In this document: in pieces, positions 7,856 through 37,664 of the stretch
Position numbering within the stretch: position 1 is the first letter of the stretch
Layout of the letters: each line of letters starts with the position of its first letter
Origin: Negaprion brevirostris
Taxonomy: Eukaryota
Reading direction: 5' to 3'
NCBI GenBank assembly: GCA_030324005.1
Contig: JARDVH010000031.1
Location: forward strand, 27,117,456 to 27,181,455
Length of the DNA stretch: 64,000 nucleotides
Program-made: the position numbers and the translations under genes
The notes under the pieces: model-generated
Database searches by the model: none
Seen by the model: only the letters and a program-made list of their open reading frames with translations
Told to the model about the DNA's origin: nothing

Positions 7856-7859
7856 GGGC

Positions 7860-8600: not shown

Positions 8601-8604
8601 TTGT

Positions 8605-8927: not shown

Positions 8928-9075
8928 TAATCTCTAAACTGCCTGTGCTGTATATGCTCTGTCCGAGGCCAGAACTCTCCATTCACCTGACGAAGAGGGT
9001 GTCCTCTCGAAAGCTTGTGAGTTTACTATCAAATAAATCGGTTGGACTAAAACCTGGTGTTGTCAGACTTTTTCC
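8928..9075 (+). mobile_element. Penelope-like element terminal (pLTR) fragment, family 1
   Basis: aataaatcggttggactaaaacctggtgttgtcagactt, shared with copies at about 13956, 16000, 25085 and 37470; includes a hammerhead motif. Confidence 0.75.
8981..9022 (+). ncRNA. Minimal type I hammerhead ribozyme motif (PLE-borne)
   Basis: attcac-CTGACGA-a-gaggg/tgtc/ctctc-GAAA-gct-t-gtgagt: stem I attcac/gtgagt, intact core, palindromic AGCT stem III. Confidence 0.7.
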
Positions 9076-11009
9076 AATGGGGGTACCATACGCATACACA
9101 CGGGTCTAGGTACGTGTAGGAAAATGCTTTGTTAAGATGGCAGTGCAGGCTCGTTGGGCTGAAGGGCCTGTTTCCCGTGCTGGGTTGTTCTTTGTTCTTT
9201 GTTTTATAATGTTTCCTGGTTACTTTGAGAGGTTATCAGTCTGAAATATGGACTCCTCATTTCTTACTCTGTAGATGCCCATCTGGCGTGAGGGTATCCA
9301 GGAATTTTCTGTTTATGTTTAAGTTTTGGATGCCAACTGTATAATGACAATGGTATTTTATAAATGTGCAGAGACTATCTATACCTAATGTACATGCAAC
9401 AAATTCAACAGACAAGGCTGCAAATATAAGTAGGTAGCTTTGTAATACAGGTAGAAATAAGCAGGTAGCTTTATAAGTAGGTAGATTAACCATAGATTTT
9501 AGGATACAAATCTCTTAGTTCAATATAATCAGCCATGGATTCGGTGAATTGGATGACCTATCATTTATGATACACCAGCTCTCTTTCATTCTATGTCAGC
9601 CTTTTAGTGTTAGGGATGGTTTGGGAGAATGAATTCAGGTTCACTGCGCTCAATACCTCAAATGACTGGAATTCCACATAAAACTCTTTGAAAAATCCAG
9701 CCAGCTGATTAAAGTTCTGGCAATTTCCTGTGAAAGTCAGTCAAAAGGAAGGCATGGCCATATGTGAAGATCTTCACTGGGTGAAAAAAAGAGGAGAGAC
9801 AATGCTTCTTTTCAAATCTTATACTTAGGAGTCATGAGCTGTCTGACAAATGATCCTGTCCCAATCTGAGGAGAATTACATCATTGTACATCAATAGATT
9901 AAAAAAAAATACTGAAAGCCCAACAGAATTCAAATAAATAAAAAATCCAGCTGTGAACTGGACACTTCAAAAGCCTGTAACGCAAGATAAAAATCATTAA
10001 CCTAACCAGGGGTGCGGTATTTCTCCAACATCTGATCAACGCAGATTATTTTGGAGCTCACTCTCCCAGAGATCATATCCACTTCAGGGAAAGGCTCTCC
10101 TCCAGTGGGCTTTATAATCTCTAGCCAAAGCAATTATTCCACTTTCGACCCCCAAGACAATCCAAACTTATACACCTCTCGTCCAGCTAGCATCCAAAGT
10201 CAATATGCTGTATATTTTTCTTCAAAGTTCACTGCAGTTAGGGCAAGCTAAGAAAGGGATGGATGATCTCGGTGGTTGGTCAATTTCTTAGCACCTCCTG
10301 ATCAATGTAACTACAATTTGTCAAACGCCTGCCTTCTTTTTGTTTCTATTTTCCCTAAGGTCTGAGAAAATCCCTGTGTCATGTCACTTTAAAATTTCAC
10401 CAGCACCTCAGGTTTGCATGTTGTTACGATGATCAGTACTGCAGAATTTCCACTCCATTACCAAGCTTTATATTCCCTTCCTTCCCCGATATAAAGATGT
10501 CACCAACATGTGCTTGTGGGAATTGGACTGAAGATATTTTAATATTAGCGGAGAAAGCTTTGTGTCAGGCAAGCAAAATCATTTTCTGTTTATCAAACTC
10601 GACATAAAAAGAATTGCTTTCAGCTCATTCTGAGCGCTGACAGCACAATTCCATTCTGAGTGGGAGAAGACAAAACATAAAAAAGGAGAAAATTAATGAG
10701 ACTGAATGAATCTCAAAGACTGTCAGATGACAATGGAGCAGAAAAGACCTGCAATGAATTTGGCAGCTCTCTAGCATCAGCGCTTGAGGAGAATTGGTTC
10801 ATACCTCACGTTAGGGTTTCAATATATATTCTAGTTTTAACTATATGCTTGGAGATGCTGTTTCTTTATCTGAAAGGATGATTAAACCAAGGCACCATCT
10901 GCCTTTTCCAATTGGTGTGACAGGTACTATTGTACAAGTTGAAGAGCAGGGTTAAAAAGAGAAATAGCTGGTTAAACTCAGCAGGTATGGTAGTTTCCAT
11001 GGAGAGAGA

Positions 11010-11893
11010 CTGGCAGAATCTTGCCCTATTTGTTCAGTGTCAGGTTCAGACTGAAAACTGGCCTGTAGCCTCCAACCACGTAGACAAGTTTTCTTACAGA
11101 TCTTACAAGTAAGNNNNNNNNNNNNNNNNNNNNNNNNNNNNNNNNNNNNNNNNNNNNNNNNNGCAAGGCCTGATTGAGATTGGGGTGCCATCTTTAAATG
11201 GTGCCCTGATCAGAACGGAAGTAGAACTGCAAACCCTCTGTCCAGTCCCTACTCCAACACAGAGGTATCAGTGGCTCCACCACCCACCACACACAATCAT
11301 CAGGACTCCTCCCTCAACCCCCTGGCACAATCACCCCTCCCACCACTAACAATTATCAGGGGTTTCCCTCCCACCGCCGTGTAAGTATTGTTGGTGTCCA
11401 CCCCCACTCTCCCACTCCTTACTGTCTACTCGCCCCAGTGCCTGAAACTTCCCCCTGACTGCCCGCTCTCCCTTCTCCCCACCATACATAAATGCCCACC
11501 AAGGGCCTGCTATGGGGGCCCACCCTGGCACTGCCTTTGGTACAAGTTGGCACTGCCAGGTCAGGGTTTGCCCTCCTGGAGGGACCCCATCTACTCATTC
11601 TTGTTTTTATTGAGCTGTTGTAAAGCTTACTTGCCCATGTTGGCAAGGTTTGAATATTGAGTGAGGGGGGGGAACATGTGGTGGGGGGGTCCTGAATGCA
11701 CATATTAAAGTGTATTTGAGTCCATTAAAAAGAAGTCTGCATCCTCTTTGGGCAAGAATCTCATGACATCATGGGAGAAGTGTGGGAAAAATCAGGAACT
11801 GTGATCTTTCTGGAGTGAATTGCATTTCCCAACTCTCTCTGGATTTTCTCTGCCATTCCCTCTGACGGTGAATATGGGCTGAAAATCACCGCA
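11010..11893. mobile_element. Non-autonomous DNA transposon (Harbinger-like) inserted in a PLE tail
   Basis: Ends ggcagaatcttgccc ... gggctgaaaatcaccgc. The flanks ctcagcaggtatgg...ggagagaga and tttcaaatccatatgactcctcttcagag are the two halves of a PLE family-2 tail. Confidence 0.45.
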
Positions 11894-11934
11894 ATGGTTT
11901 CAAATCCATATGACTCCTCTTCAGAGCGGAACAA

Positions 11935-12140
11935 TTGAGTTCCCCCAGGGTCCAGGACAACATTCTTCCCTTTGCCAAAAGCACTGAAACAAAATTCAAC
12001 TGGTTAATCACTCAGTTATAGCCTGTGGGATGGAAAAATTGGCTGCACTTGCAGACACAGAATAATTCATTAGCTATGGGGCACTTCAGGATGTGCTGAG
12101 GTTGTTGAAGATGCTATATCGATGCAAATCTTCTTTATTT
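11935..12140 (+). mobile_element. Old Deu-domain SINE 3' portion with L2-type tail (SacSINE1/AmnSINE1-like)
   Basis: aaattggctgc...ttcattagctatggggcacttcaggatgtgctgaggttgttgaagatgctatatcgatgcaaatcttcttt resembles the recalled DeuSINE/L2 tail. Confidence 0.55.
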
Positions 12141-12769
12141 GATCTTGTAAATAAATGTAAAAGTAAGCATATTGAAAAACAATGTCAGCACATTTCTATG
12201 GAATTTTCCTGCAACTTACAAGAAGAAACAAAACTATGAAGTTTCATTCTGGAATATAAATGTAGTGCTATTTATAAACCATATAAGCCTATTTAACATG
12301 CAACACTTGCTTATCATAATGTGTCAATTTAAGAAGGAAAGAATGTGTGCTGGTTTCATTAAGGAAGGAATGTAAACAGAGCAGCTTTTAGCAAGTGGCC
12401 AGATTAGAAATTGACCCGTACATTAATAGGTTATCCTTCAAAACTTTTTGAGCGGGTCTAATTTAGTGAGATATAATTACTCTCACTTATGCATCAAAAA
12501 CAATCATCTCACCAAACTCTGCCTGTTGACAGGAGATTAGTAAGGGAGCTATATCAATTTGGAACATTATGTTGCACTCTGTAAAATAAATTATGCAAGC
12601 AATAAAATATAAGAGGTTTCACACAATTCCTGAGGTCACTGTTGCATTTAAGGGGAAACTAGATAAGTTCATGAAGGAGAATGAAAAATGCAAAACGCGT
12701 TGATGACAGCAAGTGCAAATGTATTGTGAACTGTGCGCAGACTAGTGATAAACGCCAAGAAGGCATAGC

Positions 12770-13030
12770 TGGTGAAATGAGCAAACACATGGCAGAAGAA
12801 ATTTAAAGCCACAAATGGCAAGCGATTCATGATGAATGGAGGAGATGCAACATTAGCAAAAGGGAACAACTCTAAAGGAGATGTGGGAAGAGGACAATCT
12901 GGGCGAATGTGGGCCCAAATCTTTGAGAAAGTGGTTAAAATGGCAGTAGGAATCCTGAGATTTATGAATCGAGGTGTGGAGTACAAAAGCAAGGAAGCTG
13001 TGGTGAATCTCTGTAAAACATGAGTTTGAC
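12770..13030 (+). mobile_element. Decayed CR1 LINE fragment
   Basis: WQxxFN..K and QIFEKVVKMAVGILRFMNRGVEYKSKEAVVNLCKT, typical of CR1 ORF2 C-terminal region. Confidence 0.65.
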
Positions 13031-13955
13031 CTCAGTGGAGCAGTGGACAGAACTTCACTCGCCCCAGGGTGGCAGGCTGTGAATGTAGGGGTTGGGGGAC
13101 ACTGTTTCAATAGTGGTGAGCATGTTGGGCCCGCTGTTGAAGGCATTTCTGCCGCTGGGTCATATGTCGAGTGGCAAGGCTACAATGTGGATCCTCTGTC
13201 TGCTACAGGTAGGTAGGCAGGCAGACAATTTACATAATTAAAGACCCTCCTCGAGATCATCTTATGGAACTGCTGGCATTTTGTTGATAGCGAAGTATCT
13301 TCATTTCGCCATGTGGGGACACCACCAGATTAATGGAGATGGCGCCCCCTGCGGGGGCCTGAGTGGGGAGGGTTGGTTATTGGAGCCAAAGGCTCCAAGA
13401 CATAAAGAGAGAGGACCAAGGATAGGGAAGATCATTTCTGTAGGCCAAGTAACTGCTCTGGAGCAATTTTAACTCCCACTTCATGTATTTTTCATTTCTT
13501 TCTACAATACCTGGCTGAGCTCTCATTGCCCCTTGCCTGCTACATAAAGCACAATCTCTTTTCAACCTGCTGTGTAGTGTGTTTACATCTGATTTCTGCT
13601 TTCACATCTATTTTGAAGCAAAAAGGGATATCAACACTATGAGAATGCTGGCGGTCCCCCCATGCTCTTACTAGAGGTTCCACAGCTTGAAAAGTTTAGG
13701 AAACCCTGACATTTAGGAATTGTAGGAGTTAGACTGTTACCCCCTTAGATAAGAGAAGGTTGTAGGAAGATTAGATAGAAGTGTTCAGGGTAGTGAGAGA
13801 GAGAGAGAGAGAGAAACTCTTCCTATTAGTGGAAGGGTTTGAAAACCAGGGGACACTGATCTAAGGTGATTAGCCGAAGAACCAATGGCGACATGAGGGA
13901 TTGCTTTGCTCACGCAGCAGGCGGTTAGGATCTTTAGTATGGTAAGCTCAGATTT

Positions 13956-14378
13956 AGTAAGAAGTCTCACAACACCAGGTTAAAGTCCAAACAGTTTATT
14001 TGATAGTAAACCTACAAGCTTTCGGAAACACTGTTCCTTTGTCAGGTGTGTGAAAGTTCTGATCAGAGAAGGGCATATAAAGGCGCACACAGTTTACAGA
14101 ATACTGATTAGAATGCGAGTCCTTACAGCTAATCTGCCATTCAAGTCTTAAAAGTGCAGACAATGTGAGTGGAGATAGCATTAAGCATAGGTTAAAGAGA
14201 AGTGTATTGTCTCCAGACGGGACAGTAAGTGAGATGTTGCAAGTTCAGACAAGTCATGGGGGTTACAGATAGTGTGACATGAACCCAAGATCCTGGTTGA
14301 GGGCATCCTCGTGTGTGAGGAACTTGGCTATCAGTCTCTGTTCATTGACTCTGCACTGTCGTGTGTCGTGAAGGCCAC
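13956..14378 (-). mobile_element. Penelope-like element 3' end: GIY-YIG C-terminus plus pLTR
   Basis: Minus strand translates GLHDTRQCRVNEQRLIAKFLTHEDALNQDLGFMSHYL*, followed by a pLTR with a mutated hammerhead (CTGACAA) at 14011-14050. Confidence 0.85.
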
Positions 14379-15129
14379 TTATTTGGGTAAATATGTGGGG
14401 TTATAGGTCAGTGCAGATTTGATAGGCCAAATGGCCTCCTTCTGCACTGTAGGAATTGTATGATTCTATGACATACCATGGAATAGACCAGTTGTGTTGA
14501 AGGGGTTGTGCATAAGACTATTTCCTTGTCAAACAGTTTACAGGGCTTGGACCTGTGGATCAAACAAGTCAAAGCACAGATTTCTAGAATAAGTTCATTT
14601 TTACTGGAAATTCAGCATGATGTTACAAGTTAGTTTCCAACAACCTAGCAATTCCAGATTACACCTAAAAGCATGCACAAATCCATCCCTTAACTCTAGG
14701 CTCAAGTGAATAGAAACAAAATCCTCATGTAAGTGAAAGGCAGTAGACAGTCTATTTGGCAATGACTTGATGTGGCCCTCTAACTAGCCATCATGAGGAT
14801 GTCTTTAACTGCAGCAGCTCCCAGTACTTTTGTTACAATTTTTACACTTTGTAAGGGGTGGACTTGACTGTCATATTGTCAGGATCTTATTGTCTTCTAC
14901 AAAATCTTCTTCATACATAAAATATCCAATGGATTATTGAGTTCTTTGTTTAAACCAGGGAGTAAATGCCCACCCTCCAGTTATATTCCAACTTCCATGG
15001 CATTCTATAGCCTTTGCATATACAGCAGGATCAGGAGCGCATTCCTTATCTTTTCCTATTTAATTTTTGGCTTGACTTTTTATTTCAATACAAACGTGAA
15101 ACTTCCTATAACCCAAGACTTCAGCTTGT

Positions 15130-15690
15130 AAGACAGTTTTGGCCACAATGCCATCATTCTTAGCCAGCCTCAAGATACAATCATCTGACTCACCCATCCT
15201 ATGGATAGCGCCACAGATGAGCTGTACATCATGAGCTCTACAGACAGCATAGGTTTTGTGCTGGCCATTAAATCTCCCTGTTACTTTGTTGACATCAGCG
15301 AGGTTGATTCCTATTCACTGTGGTCAATTCCATGACTGCCAAGAAACAACTCATCCCCACCTTCGTGTGCGTTTTCAGGGGCCTCATTGTCTGTATTTGC
15401 CTGTTATCAGTTTGTATTTGGAGTTGTTCAAGTAGACCTGCTAAAGAACTGTTCAAAATGGCTATCCAGCCAAACCAGGCTTATTACTTCTACACACTAA
15501 CTAACTTTTGCATTCCAATGAGTGTTGGTTCCACTTTCTTTTATCAGTATAGCCTGGATATATGCTTGTTTTCCATCAGGGTTCAATAATTCATTCCTTC
15601 CCAGGATCTTATCTGTGAAAAATGCTTTTCAGCATCTTCATTTTTCTTTGAAGATGTCTTTTGACCTTGCAAAACATGTTGGTATTTGAT
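15130..15690 (-). mobile_element. Possible highly decayed Gypsy-type RT fragment
   Basis: Weak SxDIFxxKM-like and IQTMRPLKT..V..FL-like traces on the minus strand. Confidence 0.25.
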
Positions 15691-15996
15691 CAATTTTCAA
15701 GTTAGATTAAATTATAAAAAAACTGCAGAGAAGTAATTTGCATTCTCACTGTAGGCACCGCGTAGTTCAATGTAACTGCAACAATTAACCAAAAGGCTTT
15801 TCAATTTTCTCTCCTCCACTTCTGAAGGTGCTGATTCATGCTGTGATATGAGCCAGAATTTCTGGGCACATTGGCAATGGGCTGGGAGGAGGATCGGCTG
15901 TAAAAATGGCATAGGGAGGTTTCAGTATCTTCTCACTGGCATGCCATTTGATATAAAACCATGACTTCACACAGTACTATGTGTGGTTTCATGAAA

Positions 15997-16232
15997 AAGT
16001 CTCACAACACCAGGTTAAAGTCCAACAAGTTTATTTGGTAGTAATCAACCTAATTGATTAAGTGTAAAGGCTCACATTCTAATCAGTATTTTGTAAACTG
16101 TGTGTGCCTTTATATGCCCTGTGATCAGAACTCCCCACTCACCTGACGAAGGAGCAGCACTCCGAAAGCTAGTGGCGTTTACTAGCAAATAGACCTGTTG
16201 GACTTTAACCAGGTGTTGTGAGACTTCTTACT
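15997..16232 (+). mobile_element. PLE pLTR with inverted partial pLTR
   Basis: 15997-16044 aagtctcacaacaccaggttaaagtccaacaagtttatttggtagtaa is the reverse complement of 16179-16227; inverted truncated pLTRs are characteristic of PLE insertions. Confidence 0.8.
16139..16175 (+). ncRNA. Minimal type I hammerhead ribozyme motif (PLE-borne)
   Basis: tcac-CTGACGA-a-ggag/cagca/ctcc-GAAA-gct-a-gtgg: intact core, UA cleavage site. Confidence 0.72.
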
Positions 16233-16648
16233 GATGTGAGACTTCTACATACAAAGTAAGTGTGTCACCTGCGTATGCCATAGGTGACACATTTACTTTG
16301 AAATTAAAGAAAGATGGCCAAATGGGATAAAAGTGAAAGAGAGAGGGATGAATTCAGGCTGGGGAATGTCTATGTGGGCAATGAGAAGGATGAGAGGAAT
16401 AGAGGCAGCTGAATGGATGAATATTATTTTGGAAACAGAAAGTTCACAAAGCCTTTCTACTTGTTATAAGCTAGGATGGGGAGTCGAAAGAGATGGATTT
16501 AAGGAAAAAAGTTGATGTGAGGTAAAGAAACCATGTTTTATCTTGGCTCTATAGAATAATTCTACACTCGGGTAGTTTTGGCTTTGTCATGTTGATACCA
16601 TTGGCAGTTCAGGTGTGTTAAATGTCTTCATTTTTTCTGTTTTTCCAG

Positions 16649-16706
16649 GTCTAATCCCTGGTGGGAAGATAAAATTGATCCACAGTTCTTCTATTGACGT
16701 GAACAG
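16649..16706 (+). CDS. DYNC2I1: Internal exon of dynein 2 intermediate chain 1 (WDR60), (G)LIPGGKIKLIHSSSIDVN(S)
   Basis: Polypyrimidine tract plus ccag acceptor (ttttttctgtttttccag) and gttggt donor. The 58-nt exon, phase 1 to phase 2, matches the recalled human WDR60 segment [20 protein letters not shown]. Confidence 0.9.
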
Positions 16707-17509
16707 GTTGGTTTGATGGTGCTGATTGTACGATGATGCACATTGTACAATGGTAGTTGTGGGCTGATCTTGCTGTATACTGTCGGCTGTGTACTTGATT
16801 CAGGCCTGCTGAGTCCCAAACGCAGACAGAGCACGTGAATTCTAAATTTGCGACGCTTTCCCAAGCCTTAATTGGAAAAAGCCTATTTAAAATTGACTTG
16901 GCAGGAATAAAATTCAGTTGATATGGGGCATTTCAACTTCAAGGGAAATGCTAAATTTGGCCTAAGTTTGTAAACTTTGCCTGCCGCCTGTTATTCTAGT
17001 GGGAAGCTGACATAGACACAGTGAGCCTAACTGTTTGTTTCTGAGCTCAAAACCTCGATTGTTTATTGTTTAAAACTGTACTAATTACAGATTCTGCCCC
17101 ATTTGTGACTTTGAATTTCGAATTGTCTTAGTTATTTTTAGAGCATGTACATGTTATTTGGTTTTTGTTTCTCCTTATTCTGTCCAGTATAAACTAGAGA
17201 GTTCTTTTTTTGCTCATCTTGCTTTTAGAAATAAGAAAACATGATATGTGGAACATTAAAACATTTCTGAAATGGTTGTGCATTTGCATCTCTGGGAATG
17301 AGCTACTGCATGCATTTAATTCTACCACTGTGGACTTGATTCACGCTGTTCATTGATCTGTGTCATGAAATAGTTGTTTGCTGACAGCCTTTAAGCTTGC
17401 CCTTCCGCTTTGTGTCAGCATCATGGATTAATGTTCACATTCCAGCCACGTTTACGTCAGGAGTGCTAGCTAAACAGGTATGACCTGTTGAAATGGTAGT
17501 GGCTACAGA

Positions 17510-18022
17510 CACTAGGAATACTGCAGCAAGTAACTCACCTCCTGACTCCCCAAAGCCTGTGCACCATCTGCAAGGCACAAGTCAGGAGTATGATGGAATA
17601 CTGCCCACTTGACTGGATGGATGCAGCTCCAACAACACTCAAGAAACTTGACACCATCCAGGACAAAGCAGTCCGTTTGACTGGCACCACATCCCACAAA
17701 CATCCATTTCCTCCACCATTGACGCTTGGTATCTACAAGATGCACTGCAGCAATTCACCAAAGATCTTTAGACAGCACCTTCCGAACTCTTGACCACTTC
17801 CATCCACCACCCGCAAATTCCTCTCTAAGCCACTTCCCTCACAGTTGTTCGGTCAAAATTCTGGAATTCCCTCCCTAACGACATTGTGGATCAACCCACA
17901 GCACGTGGACTGCAACGATTCAAGAAGGTGGCTCACCACCACCTTCTCAAGTACAACTAGGGATGGGCAAAAAATGCTGGCCAGCCAGCGACGCCTATGT
18001 TCTGCAAATGAACTTCAAAAAA
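17510..18022 (+). mobile_element. LINE 3' end (CR1/L2-group family distinct from the HER1-like one)
   Basis: THLLTPQSL.TI.KAQVRSMMEYCPLDWMDAAPTTLKKLDTIQDKAVRL; tail gctggccagccagcgacgcc. A related fragment lies at about 48420-48730. Confidence 0.75.
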
Positions 18023-18255
18023 TGGTTGTCCTGACAATGAAAACTTTTAAATGGAAGTAATCCAAAGATGGTCTTGAAGATCCCAAATGATGGGGCTGTG
18101 ACTATTCTGTTTGGCAGCTTGTTCCATTGTGGGATTGTCTGTGTACCAATGAACAATCAAGGAATTGGACTATACGCTAGATGGGATGCTTTAATCATAG
18201 TCCACATCTTTCAGTTCAATTTATTGATACTATTTTTCTGTTGTGTTTTGATCAG

Positions 18256-18355
18256 TTTTTTTCCAAGAAATCTTATGCAGCTGGGACCTCCTCAAACTCT
18301 GAGTATCAGGTTTCTGCCTTCTGATCCTAATCATTTCTTCATTGGAACAGATATT
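18256..18355 (+). CDS. DYNC2I1: Next internal exon of DYNC2I1/WDR60, (S)[33 protein letters not shown]
   Basis: ttttgatcag acceptor and gtgagt donor. The 100-nt exon continues the frame of the previous exon (AG|T = Ser) and matches recalled human [22 protein letters not shown] in the WD40 region. Confidence 0.92.
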
Positions 18356-18599
18356 GTGAGTAGTAGCAAAATAAAAACCTTTTTTGTTCCCTATGAAAGC
18401 ACTCTTTATTTTTTGCTTTCAGACAGCAGTACACCTGCTCCAGGCACTTTCTTTATTCCATTTCTTGTCCCATCACTACTCCCTTTGGCTCTGGGAAACT
18501 AACTCTTACGTCTCCTATTTTGTACCCTATCATGCTCTTGCTCTTCTCCTACTTTTGTTCTTGTCCTACTCCACCTTGCTCGAACCTACTACCAAGCCA

Positions 18600-19429: not shown

Positions 19430-19699
19430 TAAGATCAAAGCAAAATACTGCGGATGCTGGAATCTGAAAGAAACACAGAAAATGCTAGAAAATCTCAATA
19501 GATCTGACAGCGTCTGTGGGGAGAGAATAGAATCAACAGGCCAGGGGATTTATAGCCTCGCCTGGGCAAGACTGGAAATCCCAGCTGGAAGTGGACAGAC
19601 ATTTCCTTTGTCAGGCCCTCACCCGCTCCGATTCCACGGGAGGCGAGGTGATAGAGTTCCAGCAAACATTTTGAGTCTGAATGACCCTTCATCAGAGTC
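19430..19699 (-). mobile_element. PLE family-2 tail with decayed hammerhead, interrupted by a MITE (about 19539-19662)
   Basis: gcaaaatactgcggatgctggaatctgaaa...tctgtggggagaga; minus strand CTGATGA-agggtcattcagactc-AAAAtgtt. MITE ends ggccaggggatttatagcctcgcc / ggcgaggtgatagagttccagc. Confidence 0.6.
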
Positions 19700-22260: not shown

Positions 22261-22263
22261 CAA

Positions 22264-25084: not shown

Positions 25085-25185
25085 GAGTTTATTTGGTAGC
25101 AAACCTGTTGGACTTTAACCTGGTGTTGTGAGGCTTCTTACTGTGTTTACCCTAATCCAATACCGGCATCTCCACATCATGGCTA
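25085..25185 (+). mobile_element. PLE pLTR fragment abutting a CR1 3' fragment (25015-25088)
   Basis: cctgttggactttaacctggtgttgtgaggcttcttactgtgtttaccc; the CR1 part is near-identical to 18605-18675. Confidence 0.7.
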
Positions 25186-27597
25186 CAGAAAGCAGTCAGA
25201 GAAATCTCTCCCTCAGAACAATCAACAGCCTCGGTGAAGGTTGCCATAGCAACCTTTAATCAGTTCCACACTCCATCTGACCCAGTCCTGCTCCTGCACC
25301 CAAAGGCTCTGATTAGACAAAGCACTCAAATCCAGATCAATTCAGGGCTAACCCCCTTGAAAATCAAATCTCTTATCAGTTTCCGGACTCAAAAACAAAC
25401 CCGACTTTTGTTTCCCATCTCTGTTTAGCCCACAGTTTTCACAACAAATTCAAAATCAACATTTTGCTTTTGATGTTTCTAAGCAACAATGTCCTGTTAG
25501 ATACGATGACCAAAATAGTGTGATCCATTTTGGCAAAGGACTGGCTTGCTGACAAATATTTTCAAGGAACTTAAGATATAATTTAAATGCAGGCTAAAAA
25601 TAGGCCTCACTTGTCATTCTCCATACATATCTACTTCTTTCATATCAAGGCTTGTTGTCAGCTCACGCACACAATTGAATGGTCTCTTTAGTTCTGCCCT
25701 CTTGCACATCTTGACCTTCACAAAGAAGCAGGCTTGAAGGAATATCTTCCGAGTGCAGGGCCCAATCTTACTGGTCGTCTATGCCACGCTCCTGCTGCAG
25801 CGATGTTGAAGAATTTGGCACCCAACCAAATATCTGTTCACTGCAACGGGATTGGGAAAATCGCGCTGCTATGAACAGTGGTTCAATTCCAGCCATAGAG
25901 TCCATTTAAGCACAGGCGCAAGGGAAGTAAGAAAACATGAGAAAACCTCAATATTGCTTTCTATCACCTGGTCACTCATGTCTAATTTTGTTAAACATTA
26001 GCTCAGAAGAAAATATATCCCAAGGGAGCACTGAGAAATGTTGGCCATGATTCTTCCATTGCGACCCGCAACTTTTCTGTTGGGTCGTGGTGGGAGATGC
26101 GTGTCCCTGGCCTTGAACAGGGATTTGCGCATGTGCCGTGAAAGCACGCACATCTCCCAGAGCTGGCAAACACTTGCCAGTCAGACCACACTGGAAACTG
26201 GCAGGAAAACAGGTAAGTCATTTAAATCTTTTTAAAATATGTTTAAATAAGTATATGAGTAACTATCTGTACCTTTCAGGGGTTTGGGGCAATCGGTGGG
26301 GGTGGAGGTTCCCGCTGCCATTTTGCAGACAGGATCAATCTGGGATGGAGGGAGGGTAGCGATTTGGGGGGAGGAGTGGTCTACTGGAGGTGGGGTTGGG
26401 GTTCAGCTGTCTCCGGAGGGGGGTTTTACCCTCGGGGAGGGGAATTGCCACTGCTGGGGGGGGGGGGGGGGGTAGGCTGTGAATCGGGGCACTCTGNNNN
26501 NNNNNNNNNNNNNNNNNNNNNNNNNNNNNNNNNNNNNNNNNNNNNNNNNNNNNNNNNNNNNNNNNNNNNNNNNNNNNNNNNNNNNNNNNNNNNNNNNNNN
26601 NNNNNNNNNNNNNNNNNNNNNNNNNNNNNNNNNNNNNNNNNNNNNNNNNNNNNNNNNNNNNNNNNNNNNNNNNNNNNNNNNNNNNNNNNNNNNNNNNNNN
26701 NNNNNNNNNNNNNNNNNNNNNNNNNNNNNNNNNNNNNNNNNNNNNNNNNNNNNNNNNNNNNNNNNNNNNNNNNNNNNNNNNNNNNNNNNNNNNNNNNNNN
26801 NNNNNNNNNNNNNNNNNNNNNNNNNNNNNNNNNNNNNNNNNNNNNNNNNNNNNNNNNNNNNNNNNNNNNNNNNNNNNNNNNNNNNNNNNNNNNNNNNNNN
26901 NNNNNNNNNNNNNNNNNNNNNNNNNNNNNNNNNNNNNNNNNNNNNNNNNNNNNNNNNNNNNNNNNNNNNNNNNNNNNNNNNNNNNNNNNNNNNNNNNNNN
27001 NNNNNNNNNNNNNNNNNNNNNNNNNNNNNNNNNNNNNNNNNNNNNNNNNNNNNNNNATACGTGCATTGCACCTTTGAATATTTGTGATTCAGTTTCCTAT
27101 TTTTAAATACAAGTGGTCAGTGGTTTTAGTAAGTTAGCCTCTAGTCTGGGTGGAAATATGCGCAATTTTGAACAGAATTTGGTGGCTTGGTGCAAATCAT
27201 ATCAAATCGAGGCAGATGGAATGAATACTTCCCCTGCATTTCTGAGGCGGAAATATAGCAAATGGTACACCTTTCCAACCTTGGGGGTGAAACATTTGTT
27301 AAAGAGAACAACTATTAAAGTAGTTAGGGAACAGTCCTGAAACTGTAACAGTTTCTTAATAAATGAAACATTTAGTTCTCCAAAATGTAGCCTTCTGTAA
27401 ATTTAATCTCTCAGGAATTGACATCAGAATCTGGCAGGTTCTGAGCCCTTGTGAGCAAATCATAGCAGACCACTTTATATAAAAACAACTTCAGCTGGCA
27501 ATTGTTCCTATTGCATTTGCAATAAACTATATAATCAAAGTTAGCAGTGACAACACCTTAATGCAATATAAGCAAGCAAGTGTCACTTTTTTTTACT

Positions 27598-28346: not shown

Positions 28347-28359
28347 GAACACCTTAGGT

Positions 28360-28600
28360 CCCTCTGCAAGCAGAATCCAAACCTTCCTATTGCTTGCCAT
28401 TTAACACCCCACCCTCATGTTCACATGTCTGTCCTTAGCCCTGTTGCAATGTTCCAGTGAAGCCCAATGCAAACTGGAAGAACAGCACCTCATCTTCTAA
28501 TTAGGCATTTTACATCCTTCCAGAGTTCAACAACTTCAGATCATGAACTGTCTACTCCATCTTCACCCCATTTTTCCTCCACCTATTTTATCTCACTTTA
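28360..28600 (+). mobile_element. PLE GIY-YIG C-terminal fragment; its tail resumes at about 30070-30720 after SINE and CR1 insertions
   Basis: LPIACH...HMSV..LLQCSSEAQCKLEEQHLIF...FNNFRS*; downstream cagatgctgtcagacctctgaggttttctagcattttc tail with a decayed hammerhead at about 30586-30625. Confidence 0.75.
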
Positions 28601-28719
28601 CATCTTTTTTGAGAAAATGGGGAATTATTGAATCCTAAAGTGCAGAAGGAGGCCATTTGGCCCATCAAACCTACACTGACAGCAATCCCACCCAAGCCCT
28701 ATCCCCACAACCCCCACAG

Positions 28720-30066
28720 ACTGGTTAGCTTGACATCAATGGTGGGGAAAATGCTGGAGTCAGTTACTAAGGATGTAATGACTGAGAATTTGGAAAACGG
28801 TGACAGGATTGGTCCAAGTCAGCGTGGATTCACTAAAGGGAAATTGTGCTTAACAAATCTGGAATATTTTGAGGATGCGACCAGTAAAATGGACAAGGGT
28901 GAATCAGTGGATGTTGTATATCTGGACTTTCAAAAGAAAGGCTTTTGTCAAGGTACCGCACAAGAGATTAGTGAGCAAAATTAAAGCTCCTGGTGTTGGG
29001 GGTAATGTAATGATGTGGATAGAGAATTGATTGGCAGATCGGAAGCAGAGAGTGGAAATAAAGGGGTCTTTTTCAAAGTGGCAGGCAGTGACTAGTGGGG
29101 TACTGCAGCATTCATTGCTGGGACCCCAGCTCTTCATAATATACAGTAATGATTTGGATGAAGGAATCGAATGCAATATCTCATAAATTTGTAGACTACA
29201 CTAAACTGGGTGGCAGTGTGTGCTGTGAGGAGGATGCTAAGAGGCTGCAGGTTGACTTGGACAGGCTGGCTGAGTGGTCAAATATAATGTGGATAAATGT
29301 GAGGTTATCCACTTTGGTGGCAAAAATGGGAAAGAAGATTATTATCTGAAAATGGCAGTGTAGGAAAAGGGGAAGTGCAACGTGACCTGGGTGTCATGGT
29401 GGAACAGTTATTGAAGGTTGGCATGCAGGTACAGCAGGCGATGAGGAAAGCTAATGGCATGCTGGCCTTCACAGCAAGAGGTTTTGTGTATAGGAGTGAG
29501 GATGTCTTGTTGAGTTCATACAGGGCCTTGGTGAGACCACACTTGAGTACTGTGTGAAGTTGTGGACACTCTTGCTATTGAGGGAGTCCAGCAAAGGTTC
29601 ACCAGATTTCTGGACTGACATATGAAGAGAGATTGGATTGACTGGGCTTGTACTCACTGGAATTTAGAAGAATGAGAGGAGATCTCGTAGAAATACATAA
29701 AATCCTGATGGAATTGGACAGGCAAGATGCAGGAAGAATGTTCCCGATGTTAGGGAAGTCCAGAACTAGGGATCACAGTCTAAGAATAAGGGACAAGCCA
29801 TTCAGGACTGAGATGAGAAAAACTTCTTCACTCAGAGAATTGTGAACCTGTGGAAGTTTCTAGCAGAGAAAGCTGTTGGGACTGGTTCATTAGGTATGTT
29901 CAAGGAGAGCTGGATGTGGCCCTTGTAGCTAAAAGGATCAAGGGATATGGGCAGAAAGCAGGAGTGGGACACTAAAAGTTCATGATCAACCATGGTCATA
30001 TTGAATGGAGGTACAGGCTCAAAGGGCTGAATGGCCTACTCCTGCACCTATTTTCTATGTTTCTGT
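28720..30066 (+). mobile_element. CR1 LINE, 5'-truncated, about 1.35 kb
   Basis: LVSLTSMVGKMLE...GFTKGKLCLTNL..VDVVYLDFQK, KFVDYTKLGG, RALVRPHL; tail gaatggcctactcctgcacctattttctatgtttct. Confidence 0.92.
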
Positions 30067-30309
30067 GTCTCCCCCACCCCACTCAGGTCATCTGTCATAT
30101 GTCTCAGGTTGTCCTTTGACACTCTGCTTATGTTTGTTCTGCCATTAACAGATCCAGATTTCTTCGTGTGTCACTATCAACACCTTTCTTAACCATGATC
30201 CCCATTATTTCCATTCCCTTTGACTTCTTTTGACCATGACATGCTGTCAATCTCTCCCTACCCTCCAGTTATCACTGGCCCACTGCCCAGCCCATACCCC
30301 GCATCCCCC

Positions 30310-30310
<1 letters not shown>

Positions 30311-30382
<72 letters not shown>

Positions 30383-30482
30383 NNNNNNNNNNNNNNNNNN
30401 NNNNNNNNNNNNNNNNNNNNNNNNNNNNNNNNNNNNNNNNNNNNNNNNNNNNNNNNNNNNNNNNNNNNNNNNNNNNNNNNNN

Positions 30483-30551
<69 letters not shown>

Positions 30552-30556
30552 ACACA
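30311..30556. repeat. (CA)n microsatellite spanning a 100-N gap
   Basis: Directly visible. Confidence 0.97.
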
Positions 30557-32084
30557 ATGAATCTCATCCTTTTTCCAGTTCTCTCTAACTCCAATGAAGA
30601 GTCATCCAGACTTGAGATTTCAATTTTGATCTCTGTCCGCAGATGCTGTCAGACCTCTGAGGTTTTCTAGCATTTTCTTTGTCTGTTTCCGATTCCAGCA
30701 TTCCACAGTAATTTGCTTTGATATATACAGGTGGAAGGAGATCCTCATTCTGACTTGGACCATTATTTGTATCCAGTTATATTTAATGAAAATCTGGGCA
30801 TTGACCATCATATAAAGTAACAACATCCGAGGTGAATCATTGACATCCAGGTGCAATTGGATGTTGGAGTTTTAAATTTCAGAAATGGTGTGCTGAAAAG
30901 GGTTAAAATGATTACCATATGAGAAATAAGAACATGGAAATCTCAGGGAATATGTGCCAAACTAGTTAACTTGCTGGGTTTTAGTCATTTTAGGCTATCA
31001 TTTTTGACAGTGTGTTAAATTTTGACTAAGTGTGTGCAAAGACTTGAACTGATACCTTTCTTGCCCAATTAACATGTCCACATAGAATTGCCATTAATAT
31101 TCTTTTTGGTAGGTTCAGTGCACAGTGCTGCTGATGTTGTCCTTAATCCACACAACAGCATTGGCACTAGTTCCTTGCACACAAATGCCAGCTGTGCATT
31201 TAGTTAAGCCAACATAAATAGAAACTAAAAGCTACCAGTTAATAATGCCACCTCGATGTGAAGTAATCAAAGCTGAATAATTAAAACTAGTGCATTATTT
31301 TTCATTCTCTATTAAAACTGATGGATATATTCCAGCAGAGATTTCCATGCCACCACGTTGCTTAATTAATGCACTAATGGAATATCTATTCATTTTGACT
31401 GTAGATTGTGAAAGGCCAGGAGCAGCAAATGAAACAAAATTATGAAAAACAGAAGATGTGAGAATGGGGGAGGGGGTGCGGGGGTGGGGGGTGCGGTGCT
31501 GGNNNNNNNNNNNNNNNNNNNNNNNNNNNNNNNNNNNNNNNNNNNNNNNNNNNNNNNNNNNNNNNNNNNNNNNNNNNNNNNNNNNNNNNNNNNNNNNNNN
31601 NNNNNNNNNNNNNNNNNNNNNNNNNNNNNNNNNNNNNNNNNNNNNNNNNNNNNNNNNNNNNNNNNNNNNNNNNNNNNNNNNNNNNNNNNNNNNNNNNNNN
31701 NNNNNNNNNNNNNNNNNNNNNNNNNNNNNNNNNNNNNNNNNNNNNNNNNNNNNNNNNNNNNNNNNNNNNNNNNNNNNNNNNNNNNNNNNNNNNNNNNNNN
31801 NNNNNNNNNNNNNNNNNNNNNNNNNNNNNNNNNNNNNNNNNNNNNNNNNNNNNNNNNNNNNNNNNNNNNNNNNNNNNNNNNNNNNNNNNNNNNNNTATGC
31901 CATTCAGGCAATTAATAGGCCAGCAGTGGGCCTTCACCCAGGGTGGGGAGGTCCTGCCCACTGAAAGCTAGCTGACCAATGTTGTCTGTCCATACTTTGA
32001 TTTTGAAGAAAGCTTTTAAACTCAATGTAAAGATTTGAAAACAGAAGTGTGCTTTTAAAAACTGTTGACCTTAAAGTCCATTAT

Positions 32085-32420
32085 GTCATAATTACACATT
32101 CGTGACGCCTCCATTTTACAATTCTCATCCTCCATGACCTCACCCCTCCCTAGCTGTCTCACCTCTTCTATCGCCATAACCTTCCAAGGCAAGATCACTA
32201 CACTTCTCCAATTTGGGCCTCATGCCAATCTCCTTCCACCCCATCACTGACAGCTATACTTTTAGCTGTGCAGACTATAAACCTGGGAATTTCCTCCCTG
32301 GATCTCTCCACTTCTCTCACCCTCCTTGGAGATTCTTCTTAAAACCTTCTGTAATCAAGCTTAAGGATACCTCTCTCCTTAAGGGTCTCAGCATTAAACA
32401 CCATGGGATGTTTTCCTACT
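32085..32420 (+). mobile_element. L2 LINE 3' remnant
   Basis: ctccatgacctcacccctccct...tttagctgtgcag..ctgggaatttcctccct resembles the L2 C-terminal F...P.LWNSLP segment. Confidence 0.5.
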
Positions 32421-32459
32421 TAACAGCACAAATCAACCATCAGTTCAGTGGTTGTCACA

Positions 32460-32975
32460 GAATCATCAAAAATAGGAGCAGGAGTAGACCATGTGGGCCC
32501 ATCGAGCTTGCTCCACCATTCATTAAGTTGATCCAATTGTGGCTCAATTTTCCTGCCTGACCCCCATAATCCTTGATTCACTTGTCAATCAAAAATCTGT
32601 CTAACTCAGCCTCGAATATATTTAATCAGCCTCGACTGCACTCTGGGGAACAGAATTCCACAGAGTAATCAACCTCTAAGAGAAGGAACCGCTTCTGACT
32701 TTGTCTTAAATGGGACACCCCAGTGTTCCCTTTATTCCCCCAGCCTTCTCTCTGTCAAGCCCCCTCAGTATCTTACATATTTCAGTAAAATCCTCCTTAT
32801 TCTAAACTCCAATGAGTACAGGTCCAATCTGCGCAACCTTTTCTTACAGTGCAATCCAGGAGTGAACCGAGTGAACCTTCTTTGAATTGCTTCCAATGCA
32901 AGTATATCCTTCCTTAAGTAAGGGGACAAACACTGTACAGTGTTCTGGGTGTGGTCTCACCAATGCCTGTAAAGT
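32460..32975 (-). mobile_element. CR1 LINE 3' fragment
   Basis: aataggagcaggagtagaccat tail (reverse) and gtgtggtctcaccaatgcc (reverse of ALVRPH). Confidence 0.8.
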
Positions 32976-34806
32976 TGTGGCCCATTGGAAGATTGCTGAA
33001 GGAGCCTATCTTCATCTCTAAACCTAAGCAATGATGACTTGCTAACAAATTGCCCATGAGACATGGGATAGCGAATGTGAGAGTGTGGGTGGGAGNNNNN
33101 NNNNNTATTCCATTCTCACCTTGGAGTTCATTTCTACAATTTGCAACACAACGAAATGAAGAGCAGTGAGGGACAGCATTTTATGGGGGTTCATTACTCA
33201 CTTCCCTGCCCCATAAGTAGAGTCATCTGGAAGATCACTCGCTCAAAGCCAGTCCACCCCTCAGCCATACAATGCTGCGAGAAAGCTGTATGAGTGGAGA
33301 GTGGAACTTCCATCCCTCACCCTGGATTGGCCAGCAGCCTTCATCAGTCCAGGCAGGAGCAGGCCGAATACTGAGCAAAAATCTGAGGAACATCAAGGCT
33401 GTCTTGAGAGGGTAAGTCCTGGGTTCAAGGGCAGAGTGGAATTCCAGAGTCCAAGCAGCAGATGGGTGGATGGAGGTGAAGGGGTAGGGAGGTAGACAGG
33501 TTCTNNNNNNNNNNNNNNNNNNNNNNNNNNNNNNNNNNNNNNNNNNNNNNNNNNNNNNNNNNNNNNNNNNNNNNNNNNNNNNNNNNNNNNNNNNNNNNNN
33601 NNNNNNNNNNNNNNNNNNNNNNNNNNNNNNNNNNNNNNNNNNNNNNNNNNNNNNNNNNNNNNNNNNNNNNNNNNNNNNNNNNNNCATGCTTTCTTCGGGT
33701 AGCGGCACAGAAGGAAAGGGGGTGACATTTTGCGGGCGGTGCCCCCGATTCACACAGGGCATGCTCCAAATGTCGTCCTCCCAATGCCCACACTTCGTTT
33801 CTCATTTAGGCTTTTAATAGTGGCATTTGCATGGGCAGTACATTATTGAGTTGAATGGGCCTGTTAACAAACCTGAACGACCCTTAGTTATTTGTTTATA
33901 TATGATGGACAAGCTACTGATTTTGGCAGCCGCGCTCTTAGTGTATTATGGGGGTGAACTCAAGGACAGAATATGGTGGGTTAGCCACGGACCTATTTTA
34001 TGTGCACCTGACTTTGCCAATTAATATCAGCCCACCAAATGGATATTTTGTCTGATTTTGCTCCTTTGCAGCTCGGGACATTATGACTAATTGTAGAGTT
34101 TTGATCAGTTGAGATTAGTTACTTGTTCTGTTTTGTCAAAAGACATACCACATGAATGTTTGACAGTGATTAACAGGAAAAGTCCCACTTGTTCATTGAG
34201 TCTGTCCCACACAACTGCAATATCGAGTGCATCATAATATCCACACACTCCAGCTCAGTTAAGGTCATGTAATTTCTGGGGAAACCAAATAAAACCCAGA
34301 GCAATTTGGAAAGAAAATGCAAGAAGAATTTCTCTCCAAATCCTTTCCGACAGTCAAAACTTGTCAGAAAGCTATTGCAGCTCTGATTAATGTTATACTG
34401 CCATTTATATGATATCATCTGTACTCACCAGAAACAGGTCTAGTTTTCATAGAAGGAAGGGCCTGAGAAGATTGTTTTCAACAGTGTCACCATAAATATG
34501 TGTTGAAATCTTCCGTCATCAGTCGTGGATGGGATTCTCCACTGCCGCTGAAAGTGAATGAAGTCTTGGCTGGGACGTCAAATTCTCCGTTCTCATTTGT
34601 AACAGGGTGGGGTCAGAGAACCATCAAATTGTCATTGAAAGTAAAGGTTCAAGATCGGCACTGCTGACACACAGCTTGTTGCTGCATGGAAGCAAAAATA
34701 CAACAAATCTTTATTGCATAGCCAAGTTGTAAAGAAAGTAATACTGTATAGAATATAAATAGAACAGAACTCCATTCTTGCTTATAGAGGTTTACAGCAT
34801 GGAAAC

Positions 34807-35085
34807 TGCAGTGCAGAAGGAGGCCATTTGGACCATTGAGCCTCCGTTGACAGGAATCCCACCCAGACACTATTCCCGTAATCCTGCTGAGCCCCTTGAC
34901 ATACAGAGCAATTTCTCATGGTGAATCCACCGAACCTGCACATCTTTGGAGTGTAGGAGAAAACTGGTGCAAACACAGAGAGAACATACAAACTCTACAC
35001 AGACTGTGACACAAAGCCAAAATTGAACTTAGCCACCTGGTGCTCTGAGGCAGCGGAGCTAACCAGCGTGCCACTGTGCCGCCCA
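34807..35085 (-). mobile_element. HE1-type SINE, tail type A
   Basis: tgcagtgcagaaggaggccatt ... gctaaccagcgtgccactgtgccgccc. Confidence 0.8.
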
Positions 35086-35861
35086 CAATCTATTGAAAGA
35101 AACTTCTGGCACTCCGTTCGTTCCTCTATCCATTACCCTCCAGCCACATGTTCCAGCAATAGTGTGGCCAACACATTTTAATAAAGCTCAAGCAGTGTGC
35201 AATATGATGAAATGCCTCCCACAATGCTATTATTTTAAAATATCATAATAAACCACCAAGATCAAATTAAAATTGAAAGAAATTCGTAAGCCTCAGACCA
35301 AGGGCATCAGAGGGCATAACTAATTAATATTAATAATCATGTTAATATTGCTCCAAATTGTAAGGATTTGCCTGTGTAACATTAAAGCAGTGTGACGTGT
35401 ATTTCTCATTAAGGAGCTCCTTTGAAGACAGCTTTGCACATGCAGAGAGACTATTTTGCTATTCATATTTCACCTGTCACAAATGTCACTCCCATTTTTT
35501 TTGAGTATCATTCAAATTTAAATCTTCTCCCAATACAACAGTGCTTCTTTTTTCAAAATATGTCAAACAATTTATTGTGGGGGAAGCTTGTCACAATGTT
35601 AGTCAAAAACAACATCCCATCTTTTCCTCTGAATTTTGGTAACAAAGATATGTTAAGCAAGAAGATATGAATTTTCAGTGAAAATGTCTGTCAACTACAA
35701 ACATATCAAGTAAAGGTTCAAGAACGGCACTGCTGACACACGGGTTGCTGCTGCATAGAAGCAAAAATACAACAAATCAGAATCACATAGCCAGGCTGTA
35801 AAGAAAATAATACTGTATAGAATATGAATTTAAAAAAAACTCCATGCTTGCTTATAGAGTC

Positions 35862-36350
35862 ACAGAGGTTTACAGCATGGAAACAGGCTCTTCGGCCCAA
35901 CTTGTCCATGCCATCCTTTTTTTTAAACCCCTAGGCAAGTCCCAATTGTCCACATTTGGCCCATATCCCTCTATACCCATCTTACCCATGTAACTGTCTA
36001 AATGCTTTTTAAAAGGCAAAATTGTACCCACTACCTCTGGCAGCTTGTTCCAGGCGCTCACCACCCTCTGAGTGAAAAAATTGCCCCTCTGAATCCTTCT
36101 GTATCTCCCTTCTTACCTTAAACCTATGCCCTCTAAATTTAGATTCCCCTATCTTTGGAGAAAGAGATTGACTATCTAGTTGATCTATGCCCCTCATTAT
36201 TTTATTGATCTCTATAAGATCACCCCTCAGCCTTCTACGCTCCAGAGAAAAATGTCCCAGTCTGTCCAGCCTCTCCTGGTAGCTCAATCCATCAAGTCCT
36301 GTAACATCCTAGTAAATCTTTTCTGCACTCTTTTTAGTTTAATAATATCC
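35862..36350 (-). mobile_element. CR1 LINE 3' fragment
   Basis: SYQERLDRLGHFSLERRRLRGDLIEINKIMRG; WNKLPEVV..FKKHLD. Confidence 0.88.
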
Positions 36351-36700
36351 TGTTCTGAGACACTGAGCTCAGTGCTGGGTCTGGAGAGCTTGGGTTATTA
36401 TCAGAAGAGCTGGATCAGTCTCTGTCTTGAGACACTGGGTGCAGGGAGCCATTTTCAGTCCCTGTCCTGGGACACTGGGCTTGGTTTGTTGTCAGGAGAG
36501 CAGGATGAGTCCCTGGGACATTTGGTGCGGGGAGCTGTATTCAGTCCCTGTCCTAGGACACTGGGCTTTGTTTGAGGTCTGGAGAATGGGATTCAGTCAT
36601 TGTCCTGGGACACGGACGATGGAGTGCTGGGCTCGCTTTCAGTTGATGAGTGCCAAACTCTGTACTGGGAGGACTGGCACTGTTCTTTCTGGAACACTGG
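36350..36700. repeat. Degenerate tandem repeat with tgtcc(tg/ta)ggacactgg motif (about 43/86-bp period)
   Basis: tcagtccctgtcctgggacactgggcttggtttg (36455) versus tcagtccctgtcctaggacactgggctttgtttg (36541), plus about 5 looser copies. Confidence 0.7.
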
Positions 36701-36777
36701 CCTCTGTTCCAATTTCAGAGTAAATTGGAAGCAAAATACTGTGAATAGTGGAAATGTGAAATAAAAACAGGACAAGT

Positions 36778-37078
36778 GAGTGGCACAGTAAGTAGTACTG
36801 CTGCATCTCACTGACAGGTGTCAATTCTAGCATCAGATGACTGTGTGGAGTTTGCATATTTTCTCTGCAAGTACGTGGGTTTCCTCCGGCTGCACCAGTT
36901 TCCTCCAAAAGTGTGAATGCTACATGGATTGGCCCTACTAAATTGACACTTAATGTCAGGGGGATTAGCAGGGTAAATATGTGGGGTTATGGGGATAGGG
37001 CCTGGATGGGATTGTTGCGATGCAGGCTCGATGGGCTGAATAACCTCCTTCTGCACTGTAGGGATTCTATGATTCTAA
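36778..37078 (+). mobile_element. HE1-type SINE, tail type A
   Basis: gtggcacagt...gtgggtttcctccggctgc...cctccttctgcactgtagggattctatgattcta. Confidence 0.85.
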
Positions 37079-37467
37079 ATCTGTCTTTTTTACCTGCCTT
37101 TAGTCTAACTTATCAACGGAAGCTCAAATTTCCTTTAAAAGCTCCAGTTATCTCCTCTCCTCCTCTGTGACATGCTCAAAGACATTTTTCGACGTGCGTC
37201 GTGCTGTGTCTTCCGTACCCTTCAACAGCTAAGGTTCCTTGTGTCTTTTCTTACTCCTCAGTTGTGGGAACATAAGATCAGGATTTGTAGGATGGCGGGG
37301 TGTTGACACCTTGAGGGGCACATTTCTGCCGTGCTGGCTTCCCCACAGCCACCTAATGCTGCAAGGACCATTGGTTGGATAGATGCCGTACTCCCAGTCC
37401 CCACTCGGGAGAAAGTCCCCACCGCAAAGGGCTGCCAATCTGGTTGGCCAGCAGGCTGTTCAATCCA

Positions 37468-37664
37468 GCAGTAAGAAGTCTGACAACACTAGGTTAAAGT
37501 CGATCTGATTTATTTGATAGTACACTCACTAGCTTTCAGGGTTTGTCCCTTCGTCAGGTGAATGGAGAGTTCTGGCCTCAGACAGATCATATAAAGCACA
37601 GACAGTTTACAGATTACTGATTAGAATGCGAATCTTTACACCTAACCTGCTGTTCAAGTCTTAA
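37468..37664 (-). mobile_element. PLE pLTR fragment, family 1
   Basis: cagtaagaagtctgacaacactaggttaaagtc...tttatttgatag; homologous to 13956-14150. Confidence 0.8.
37523..37564 (-). ncRNA. Minimal type I hammerhead ribozyme motif (PLE-borne)
   Basis: Reverse complement cattcac-CTGACGA-aggg/acaaa/ccct-GAAA-gct-a-gtgagtg: 7-bp stem I, perfect stem II, intact core. Confidence 0.75.

Follow-up and report, generated by a model that had tools for sequence, protein, structure and literature searches.

Minimal hammerhead motifs in truncated Penelope-like element ends around DYNC2I1 exons of the shark Negaprion brevirostris

Introduction

Minimal hammerhead ribozymes (min-HHRs) are found in the pseudo-long terminal repeats (pseudo-LTRs) of metazoan Penelope-like elements (PLEs) and, according to the 2014 report (PMC4209133), are characterized by a type I topology in which a CUGANGA core is followed by one extra base and a G10.1-C11.1 pair, and in which a palindromic 15.2-16.2 pair takes the place of a true stem III. 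Their stem I is short, stem II is variable and covarying, the 3' flank is AU-rich, and the genomes hold covariation-rich families as well as mostly single, truncated motifs. The subject of this work is a stretch of 64,000 nt of the shark Negaprion brevirostris (assembly GCA_030324005.1, contig JARDVH010000031.1, positions 27,117,456-27,181,455, forward strand; hereafter the window), which holds four copies of such a motif around two exons of the gene DYNC2I1 (WDR60). We are confident, on balance, that the four copies are 3' ends, each truncated on its 5' side, of a shark PLE family of very high abundance, likely of the Neptune clade, that carries a minimal type I hammerhead and whose isolated copies are likely inactive. 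The 2014 paper already described the motif, the dimer model, and covarying families, and the shark family is an ordinary new example of that class.

The shark copies share with the min-HHRs of PMC4209133 the topology, the core with its extra base, the G10.1-C11.1 pair, the palindrome, the short stem I, the AU-rich 3' flank, the terminal-repeat location, the variable stem II, and the predominance of solitary truncated copies, and they match the published consensus CUGANGAH-G..C-GAAA-palindrome-UH. They differ in stem II, whose 4-5 bp are among the shortest of the published lengths, and in a GC palindrome instead of the commoner CG; a turtle motif in the same source has the same GC-U-U and a downstream AAAUAAA. 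Supplementary file 2 of that paper has no shark entry, and our literature search found no paper on shark PLE hammerheads.

Other described systems are more distant. The Neptune and Nematis PLEs (PMC8557442) have in common with the shark family full-length relatives with a reverse transcriptase (RT), a GIY-YIG endonuclease, and a cysteine linker, whereas the window lacks a full open reading frame (ORF). The anole element PAc (PMC11167929) also has a hammerhead near the element end and a tail that marks alternative starts of reverse transcription, but it belongs to the Penelope/Poseidon clade and has a start codon at stem II, where the shark copies have no ATG. Non-LTR retrozymes, reported in one chondrichthyan genome by a preprint (bioRxiv 10.64898/2026.07.22.740005), share the type I hammerhead in pseudo-LTR-related sequence; however, they are tandem non-coding units, while the shark copies are dispersed and one of them keeps the tip of an ORF. 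In particular, a retrozyme tandem array does not describe the locus, whose copies are 2-21 kb apart and in both orientations. Finally, the domesticated hammerheads of amniotes, in RECK and other genes (PMC6155905), are likewise intronic, of type I, and of retroelement origin, but are single-locus sequences conserved across many species, in contrast to the huge shark family with its copies in both orientations and its private decay.

Four hammerhead motifs at the ends of a Penelope-like element

A first-pass annotation of the window, made from the sequence alone, had reported four homologous hammerhead motifs in PLE pseudo-LTRs, one of them with the core mutated to CTGACAA; all four were confirmed in position and strand, together with that core. 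Hammerhead 1 (8981..9022, +) has a stem I of 6 bp, an intact core with the extra A, a stem II of 5 bp in register, the GC palindrome, and a predicted cut after 9016 (CUU). Hammerhead 3 (16139..16175, +), the best match to the published min-HHR consensus, has a stem I of 4 bp, an intact core with the extra A, the G10.1-C11.1 pair, a stem II of 4 bp, and a predicted cut after 16171 (CUA). Hammerhead 4 (37523..37564, -) has a stem I of 7 bp, an intact core, a U at position 11.1, and a predicted cut after 37530 (CUA). These three are recognized by a descriptor, by alignment, and by folding. Hammerhead 2 (14010..14051, -), defined by alignment, contig depth, and folding, is dead: G8 is replaced at 14040, stem I is reduced to 2 bp, and stem II has 4 bp.

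The cores are CTGACGA at 8987 (+), CTGACAA at 14045 (-), CTGACGA at 16143 (+), and CTGACGA at 37557 (-), each followed by GAAA-GC-T-H; positions C3-A9 (CUGANGA) and G12-A15 (GAAA) are thus intact in all but copy 2. The extra A between A9 and 10.1 is present in the four copies, although the predicted fold of copy 4 has this base paired, and all of them have G at 10.1, which is closed by C11.1 in three and by U in copy 4. The palindromic 15.2-16.2 pair with U16.1 and H17 reads GC-U-U or GC-U-A throughout and does not give a stable stem III. A shared stem I is not confirmed as initially proposed, its length being 6, 2, 4, and 7 bp in copies 1-4, respectively; the break at 14013 in copy 2 is private, the pairing letter being present in about 98% of the family depth in three large contig runs and in 81% in a small one.

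The motifs are embedded in longer homologous sequence, as BLAST of each motif against the window gives four stretches of 140-200 bp with 76-85% identity. Copy 1 (8928..9073, +), whose 5' side is cut by an N gap, is 85% identical to copy 4 and 77% identical to copies 2 and 3 by blastn, in agreement with the alignment. Copy 2 (13956..14376, -), delimited by alignments, protein matches, and the edges and loose ends of contig depth, is the longest remnant and includes the last 36-38 codons of a GIY-YIG endonuclease with the stop codon (14265-14263), some 220 nt of non-coding 3' sequence, the hammerhead, and the element end. The hammerhead lies about 220 nt behind the stop of the ORF tip, in the terminal region of a PLE. 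Copy 3 (16056..16233, +) is placed about 415 nt upstream of an exon by BLAST, alignment, tblastn, and contig depth, and copy 4 (37469..37664, -), identified by BLAST and alignment, is again cut by an N gap on its 5' side. The flanks divide the copies into two subfamilies, {1,4} and {2,3}.

A strict descriptor, which requires the core, the palindromic 15.2-16.2 pair, and at least 3 bp in each of stems I and II, matches copies 1, 3, and 4, in comparison with a mean of 0.0033 matches in 300 trinucleotide-matched simulated sequences, none of which reached 3. With a covariance model of the four copies, no fifth full one is detected in the window, where the next score is 11.6 bits versus 63-68 bits. 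The expectation that these motifs would go unannotated holds for Rfam, whose search of the window returned no hammerhead up to E=5. The four motifs are real minimal hammerheads of a known kind and, as copies, likely dead relics.

Family and abundance of the element

The ORF tip of copy 2 (14266..14376, -) consists of the 38 codons upstream of the non-coding part, ending at the stop at 14265, and is 64% identical over 36 aa to the full-length RT/GIY-YIG proteins P0012 and P0021. A word-index protein search with this tip had no match, and a full HMMER search gave 20 matches at E <= 0.001; its relatives include shark proteins as well as full-length proteins that combine RT and GIY-YIG domains. 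The tip itself is not recognized by Pfam, which in the relatives detects RVT_1 (E=3.8e-10 in P0012) and GIY-YIG (E=0.0017 in P0009, below the Pfam cut-off); P0012 also gave a weak enterotoxin-subunit match (E=0.046), again below the cut-off, which was taken as noise. Only the last 36-38 residues of the PLE ORF are present in the 64-kb window, in which no other piece of it was found.

Both P0012 and P0021 have a CX4CxxC linker. According to Craig et al. 2021 (PMC8557442), a CX2-5CxxC linker before the endonuclease marks Neptune or Nematis PLEs, and a preprint names Neptune and Poseidon as the PLE groups of vertebrates; the two statements together make Neptune the likely clade. It weighs against this label that it comes from a linker motif in relatives and not from a tree.

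The family is very abundant. In three large runs not labelled as RNA, contig depths over the element add up to 2.5e5-1.9e6, versus about 1-115 in the unique flanks, a depth that is not a copy number, and 99,000-124,000 contigs per large run map to a stretch in which one other repeat is present as well; these values mark the PLE family as very high-copy. One further run, presumed to be of RNA, is of a kind that shows neither transcript ends nor strand. Patterns of the family gave no matches in viral contigs, metagenome contigs, or prokaryote genomes. The protein-based locus search likewise found none in viral contigs, and its sole match elsewhere (L050), located in a bacterial gene, was rejected as due to chance.

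Stem II: pairing, variation, and its causes

When the four copies are aligned on the core and stem II is compared in this homologous register, 15 of the 16 cells pair and three of the four pairs (10.2, 10.3, and 10.4) change on both sides, pair 10.3 following the split between subfamilies. Independent neutral decay, simulated on the tree ((1,4),(2,3)) with 6 settings and 3 ancestors, produces the observed pattern in 0-760 of 100,000 cases, and in no more than 6 at flank-like rates. The two-sided changes are real and are rarely given by neutral decay, with the caveat of n=4. Stem II changes fast: per copy pair there are 2-5 differences in the 8 sites of its arms and, with the loop included, between 4 of 13 and 9 of 12, as compared to 0-1 differences in the 15 core sites and 11-22% in the flanks; the excess of stem II over the flanks has an uncorrected p<0.05 in four of the six copy pairs. 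A stem that changes fast and still pairs fits selection in the source elements, and the differences likely record past selection in elements that were then active.

The first-pass annotation had described a different but paired stem II in each copy. This stands for copies 1-3 in register, while in copy 4 the proposed aggg/ccct is a one-base register shift that uses the conserved extra A as a base of the stem, and the same positions in register give G-U, G-C, G-C, and a mismatch; it is thus not an instance of covariation. The shifted register of copy 4, with an A-U closing pair and without an extra base, is preferred by ViennaRNA (p about 0.95). CpG sites are prone to C-to-T decay, and one such change would explain the shift in copy 4. 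A natural shrimp motif without the extra base is described in PMC4209133. The gaggg/ctctc stem of copy 1 can form, but ViennaRNA assigns it p=0.02 versus a shifted hairpin that ties up the core bases G8, A9, and G12 and prevails over the named stem, whereas stem II of copy 3 is predicted with p of about 0.87.

Several observations weigh against selection as the cause of the covariation, which had been proposed from the start and is in part borne out by the two-sided pairs. The sample consists of four sequences and is not family-wide, and a column shuffle at n=4 is not significant, since the observed covariation score is reached in 35 of 500 shuffles and the observed number of pairs in 76. Three two-sided pairs are likewise obtained with a slide of -1, at 43% pairing versus 89%, and the register of copy 1 is ambiguous. 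The deficit of changes in the core in comparison to the flanks is not significant in any copy pair (best p=0.07), and among the 40 of 219 family variants listed there is no change in stem II.

The differences could also be due to the mechanics of mutation, by template switching or quasi-palindrome correction, or by the swap of a hairpin block between subfamilies, an explanation that we regard as improbable but worth serious consideration. In quasi-palindrome correction one arm of an imperfect palindrome is rewritten from the other. Between copies 1 and 4 there are 9 differences in the 12 positions of stem II and its loop, 14 in the 104 of the flanks, and none in the 27 of stem I and the core (Fisher p=2e-5, uncorrected), which looks like the replacement of a block, and the sequence of copy 1 allows a reading as a 12-nt hairpin with a 2-nt slip. 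However, in all four copies stem II is anchored between the extra A and GAAA and begins with G10.1, and the same anchored pattern is found across unrelated animal PLE families and at the metagenome locus L005, which points to structural constraint. Selection on pairing in the source elements remains for these reasons the preferred reading.

Catalytic competence of the copies

It had been suggested that three of the copies may still be catalytically competent, and this is not upheld by the analysis. The motif needs a partner for its stem III and the copies are solitary. Only copies 1 and 3, 7.1 kb apart, are in sense to the DYNC2I1 pre-mRNA; copies 2 and 4 are antisense and would not appear in it as hammerheads. 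Double hammerheads are predicted to be 1 to 9 kcal/mol less stable than the separate monomers, for the four homodimers as well as for the 1+3 pair: the folds have -19.7 (1+1), -9.7 (2+2), -14.5 (3+3), -19.9 or -26.3 (4+4), and -19.4 kcal/mol (1+3), and the monomers, in the same order, -26.8, -18.8, -19.0, -27.4, and -22.9 kcal/mol, energies which exclude Mg2+ and tertiary contacts and are indicative only. With its 7.1-kb loop the 1+3 pair would pay about 13.6 kcal/mol more. Within 190-210 nt of local context neither copy 1 nor copy 3 folds as a hammerhead, copy 1 being the one that is predicted to misfold. The isolated copies are likely inactive relics.

Published min-HHRs have no activity as monomers and low activity as dimers (PMC4209133), and the ribozyme of the anole PLE cuts only in the presence of the element's protein, is not required for insertion in vitro, and has no RNA-seq ends at its cut site (PMC11167929).

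That one or more copies still cut RNA, either as a 1+3 heterodimer in DYNC2I1 pre-mRNA or by activation in trans by PLE RNA or protein, is in our judgement quite improbable. Copies 1 and 3 have intact cores and the AGCU palindrome, an exchange of strands would allow stems I of 4 and 6 bp, the insertion of copy 3 appears to be old and shared, and intronic hammerheads of amniotes are conserved (PMC6155905). Against these points stand the folding results, both for the 1+3 pair, less stable than its monomers even before the loop penalty, and for the two copies in their local context, the weak or absent activity of the published min-HHRs and the lack of RNA-seq ends in the anole (PMC4209133 and PMC11167929), the erosion of stem I in copy 3, and the antisense orientation of half of the copies, as random insertion would give.

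A narrower form of this idea, to which we give only a very slim chance, is that copies 1 and 3 would form a split double hammerhead within one long intron and cut the host pre-mRNA, perhaps only together with the PLE protein, one of the two being an old insertion shared between shark species. If this were true, given many relics genome-wide, shark genes would carry a hidden layer of intron cleavage switched by a transposon. The age of copy 3 is suggested by contig ends in the runs of other organisms, whose genomes would have the insertion in common: four of the contigs across the junction extend into the element by 9-28 letters, fewer than the 31 required, and one more extends by 31. Element contigs swamp orthologous copies across the runs, in which junction contigs mostly extend fewer than 31 letters into the element.

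Lastly, an origin of the motifs by chance or as an artefact of alignment has next to no probability: the motif is short and has no match in Rfam, but three strict matches where 0.0033 are expected, the position behind a PLE ORF, and the agreement with the published consensus refute a chance origin.

A possible history of the copies

By analogy with published work on other PLEs, the element would be transcribed as a partial tandem with two pseudo-LTRs, whose AGCU palindromes would pair to form stem III while the strands of stem I are exchanged, generating a double hammerhead. This structure would cut after GAAAGCUH, probably with the help of the element's own protein. Reverse transcription would then start at the element end or at its tail, and most insertions would keep only the last 50-400 nt, with the consequence that hammerheads are scattered through the locus. 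As stem II would need only to pair, its sequence could drift between source subfamilies while the core stayed fixed, and the two-sided changes would likely have been fixed in active source elements before insertion. After insertion the copies would have decayed privately, in the core and stem I of copy 2 and probably at position 11.1 of copy 4.

With this locus, the class described in 2014 comes to include a shark PLE family, and its motifs are seen to escape Rfam. So numerous a family, with its core fixed and its stem II changing fast, would provide a deep natural alignment for testing selection for catalysis, a question left open by the 2014 authors, and the same alignment could show why stem II changes faster than the flanks. 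The finding would matter more only if relic copies cut host transcripts.

Host gene, other element pieces, and further motifs

DYNC2I1 is represented in the window by two coding exons on the plus strand, with approximate bounds 16648..16704, where tblastn with shark proteins gives 18-19 of 19 identical residues, and 18254..18355, defined by protein matches and sensitive tblastn. Human WDR60 is matched by one reading frame of the window, and in the search with the DYNC2I1 frame 19 of 23 candidates passed, 18 of which are named, every one as DYNC2I1 of a shark or ray, seven with 100% identity across the matched stretch. Sensitive tblastn of the window detected no DYNC2I1 exon other than these, neither in the 16 kb upstream (1-16647) nor in the 45 kb downstream (18356-64000), and the missing neighbours are explained either by very long introns or by the loss of exons in N gaps, of which the window has 24. 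The placement of the four copies inside DYNC2I1 introns, as first annotated, is confirmed with regard to the gene and its strand; their intronic position is likely, given that the protein continues on both sides of the two exons, and would assign copies 1-3 to the upstream and copy 4 to the downstream intron.

Two further pieces, found by BLAST, retain only the last 40-50 nt of the element and no hammerhead. The first (15994..16044, -) is an inverted, 5'-truncated piece with the last 51 nt, directly upstream of copy 3; the second (25103..25180, +) has the last 41 nt followed by an optional tail extension, supported by contig loose ends. In each of the four contig runs this tail is also the most frequent loose end behind 16233. 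According to PMC8557442, an inverted truncated piece at insertions and an optional tail are hallmarks of PLEs. Close to the end of the tail-bearing piece (25103-25190, +) is an ATG, possibly the start codon of the following ORF of a tandem element. Directly behind copy 3 a 12-nt stretch of the element end is repeated (16222-16252, +), possibly by a slip at the priming of reverse transcription. The truncated 5' end of copy 2 adjoins another very high-copy short repeat (14404-14471), as indicated by depth and loose ends.

A looser hammerhead pattern retrieved 49 metagenome loci with 21 distinct matches, most of which are unpaired chance matches; about six of the 21 have a stem II of at least 5 bp, or 3 bp in each of the two stems I and II, and these, chosen on the core, do not belong to the shark family and are outside the covariation counts. 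Three of these (L005, L004, and L049) are other probable PLE ends with a minimal hammerhead of the AGCU type and unrelated stems II, 30-150 nt behind the ends of GIY-YIG-like ORFs, which were called by tblastn for L005 (E=0.007) and by eye only for L004 and L049. A further locus, L010 (289-339, duplicated in L016), on a metagenome contig of otherwise unrelated sequence, has a hammerhead nearly identical to that of copy 3 (42 bits), with a stem II of 5 bp and a stem I of 5 bp.

At least one other repeat family has left decayed motifs that resemble hammerheads in the window, at 56690-56758 (-), 19695 (-), 11924 (-), 30560-30720 (+), and 19436-19526 (-). The motif at 56758 reads CTGATGA-A-stem-GAAA, that at 19695 has lost the GAAA, and the sequences downstream of 56758, 30630-30720, and 19436-19526 are related by BLAST.

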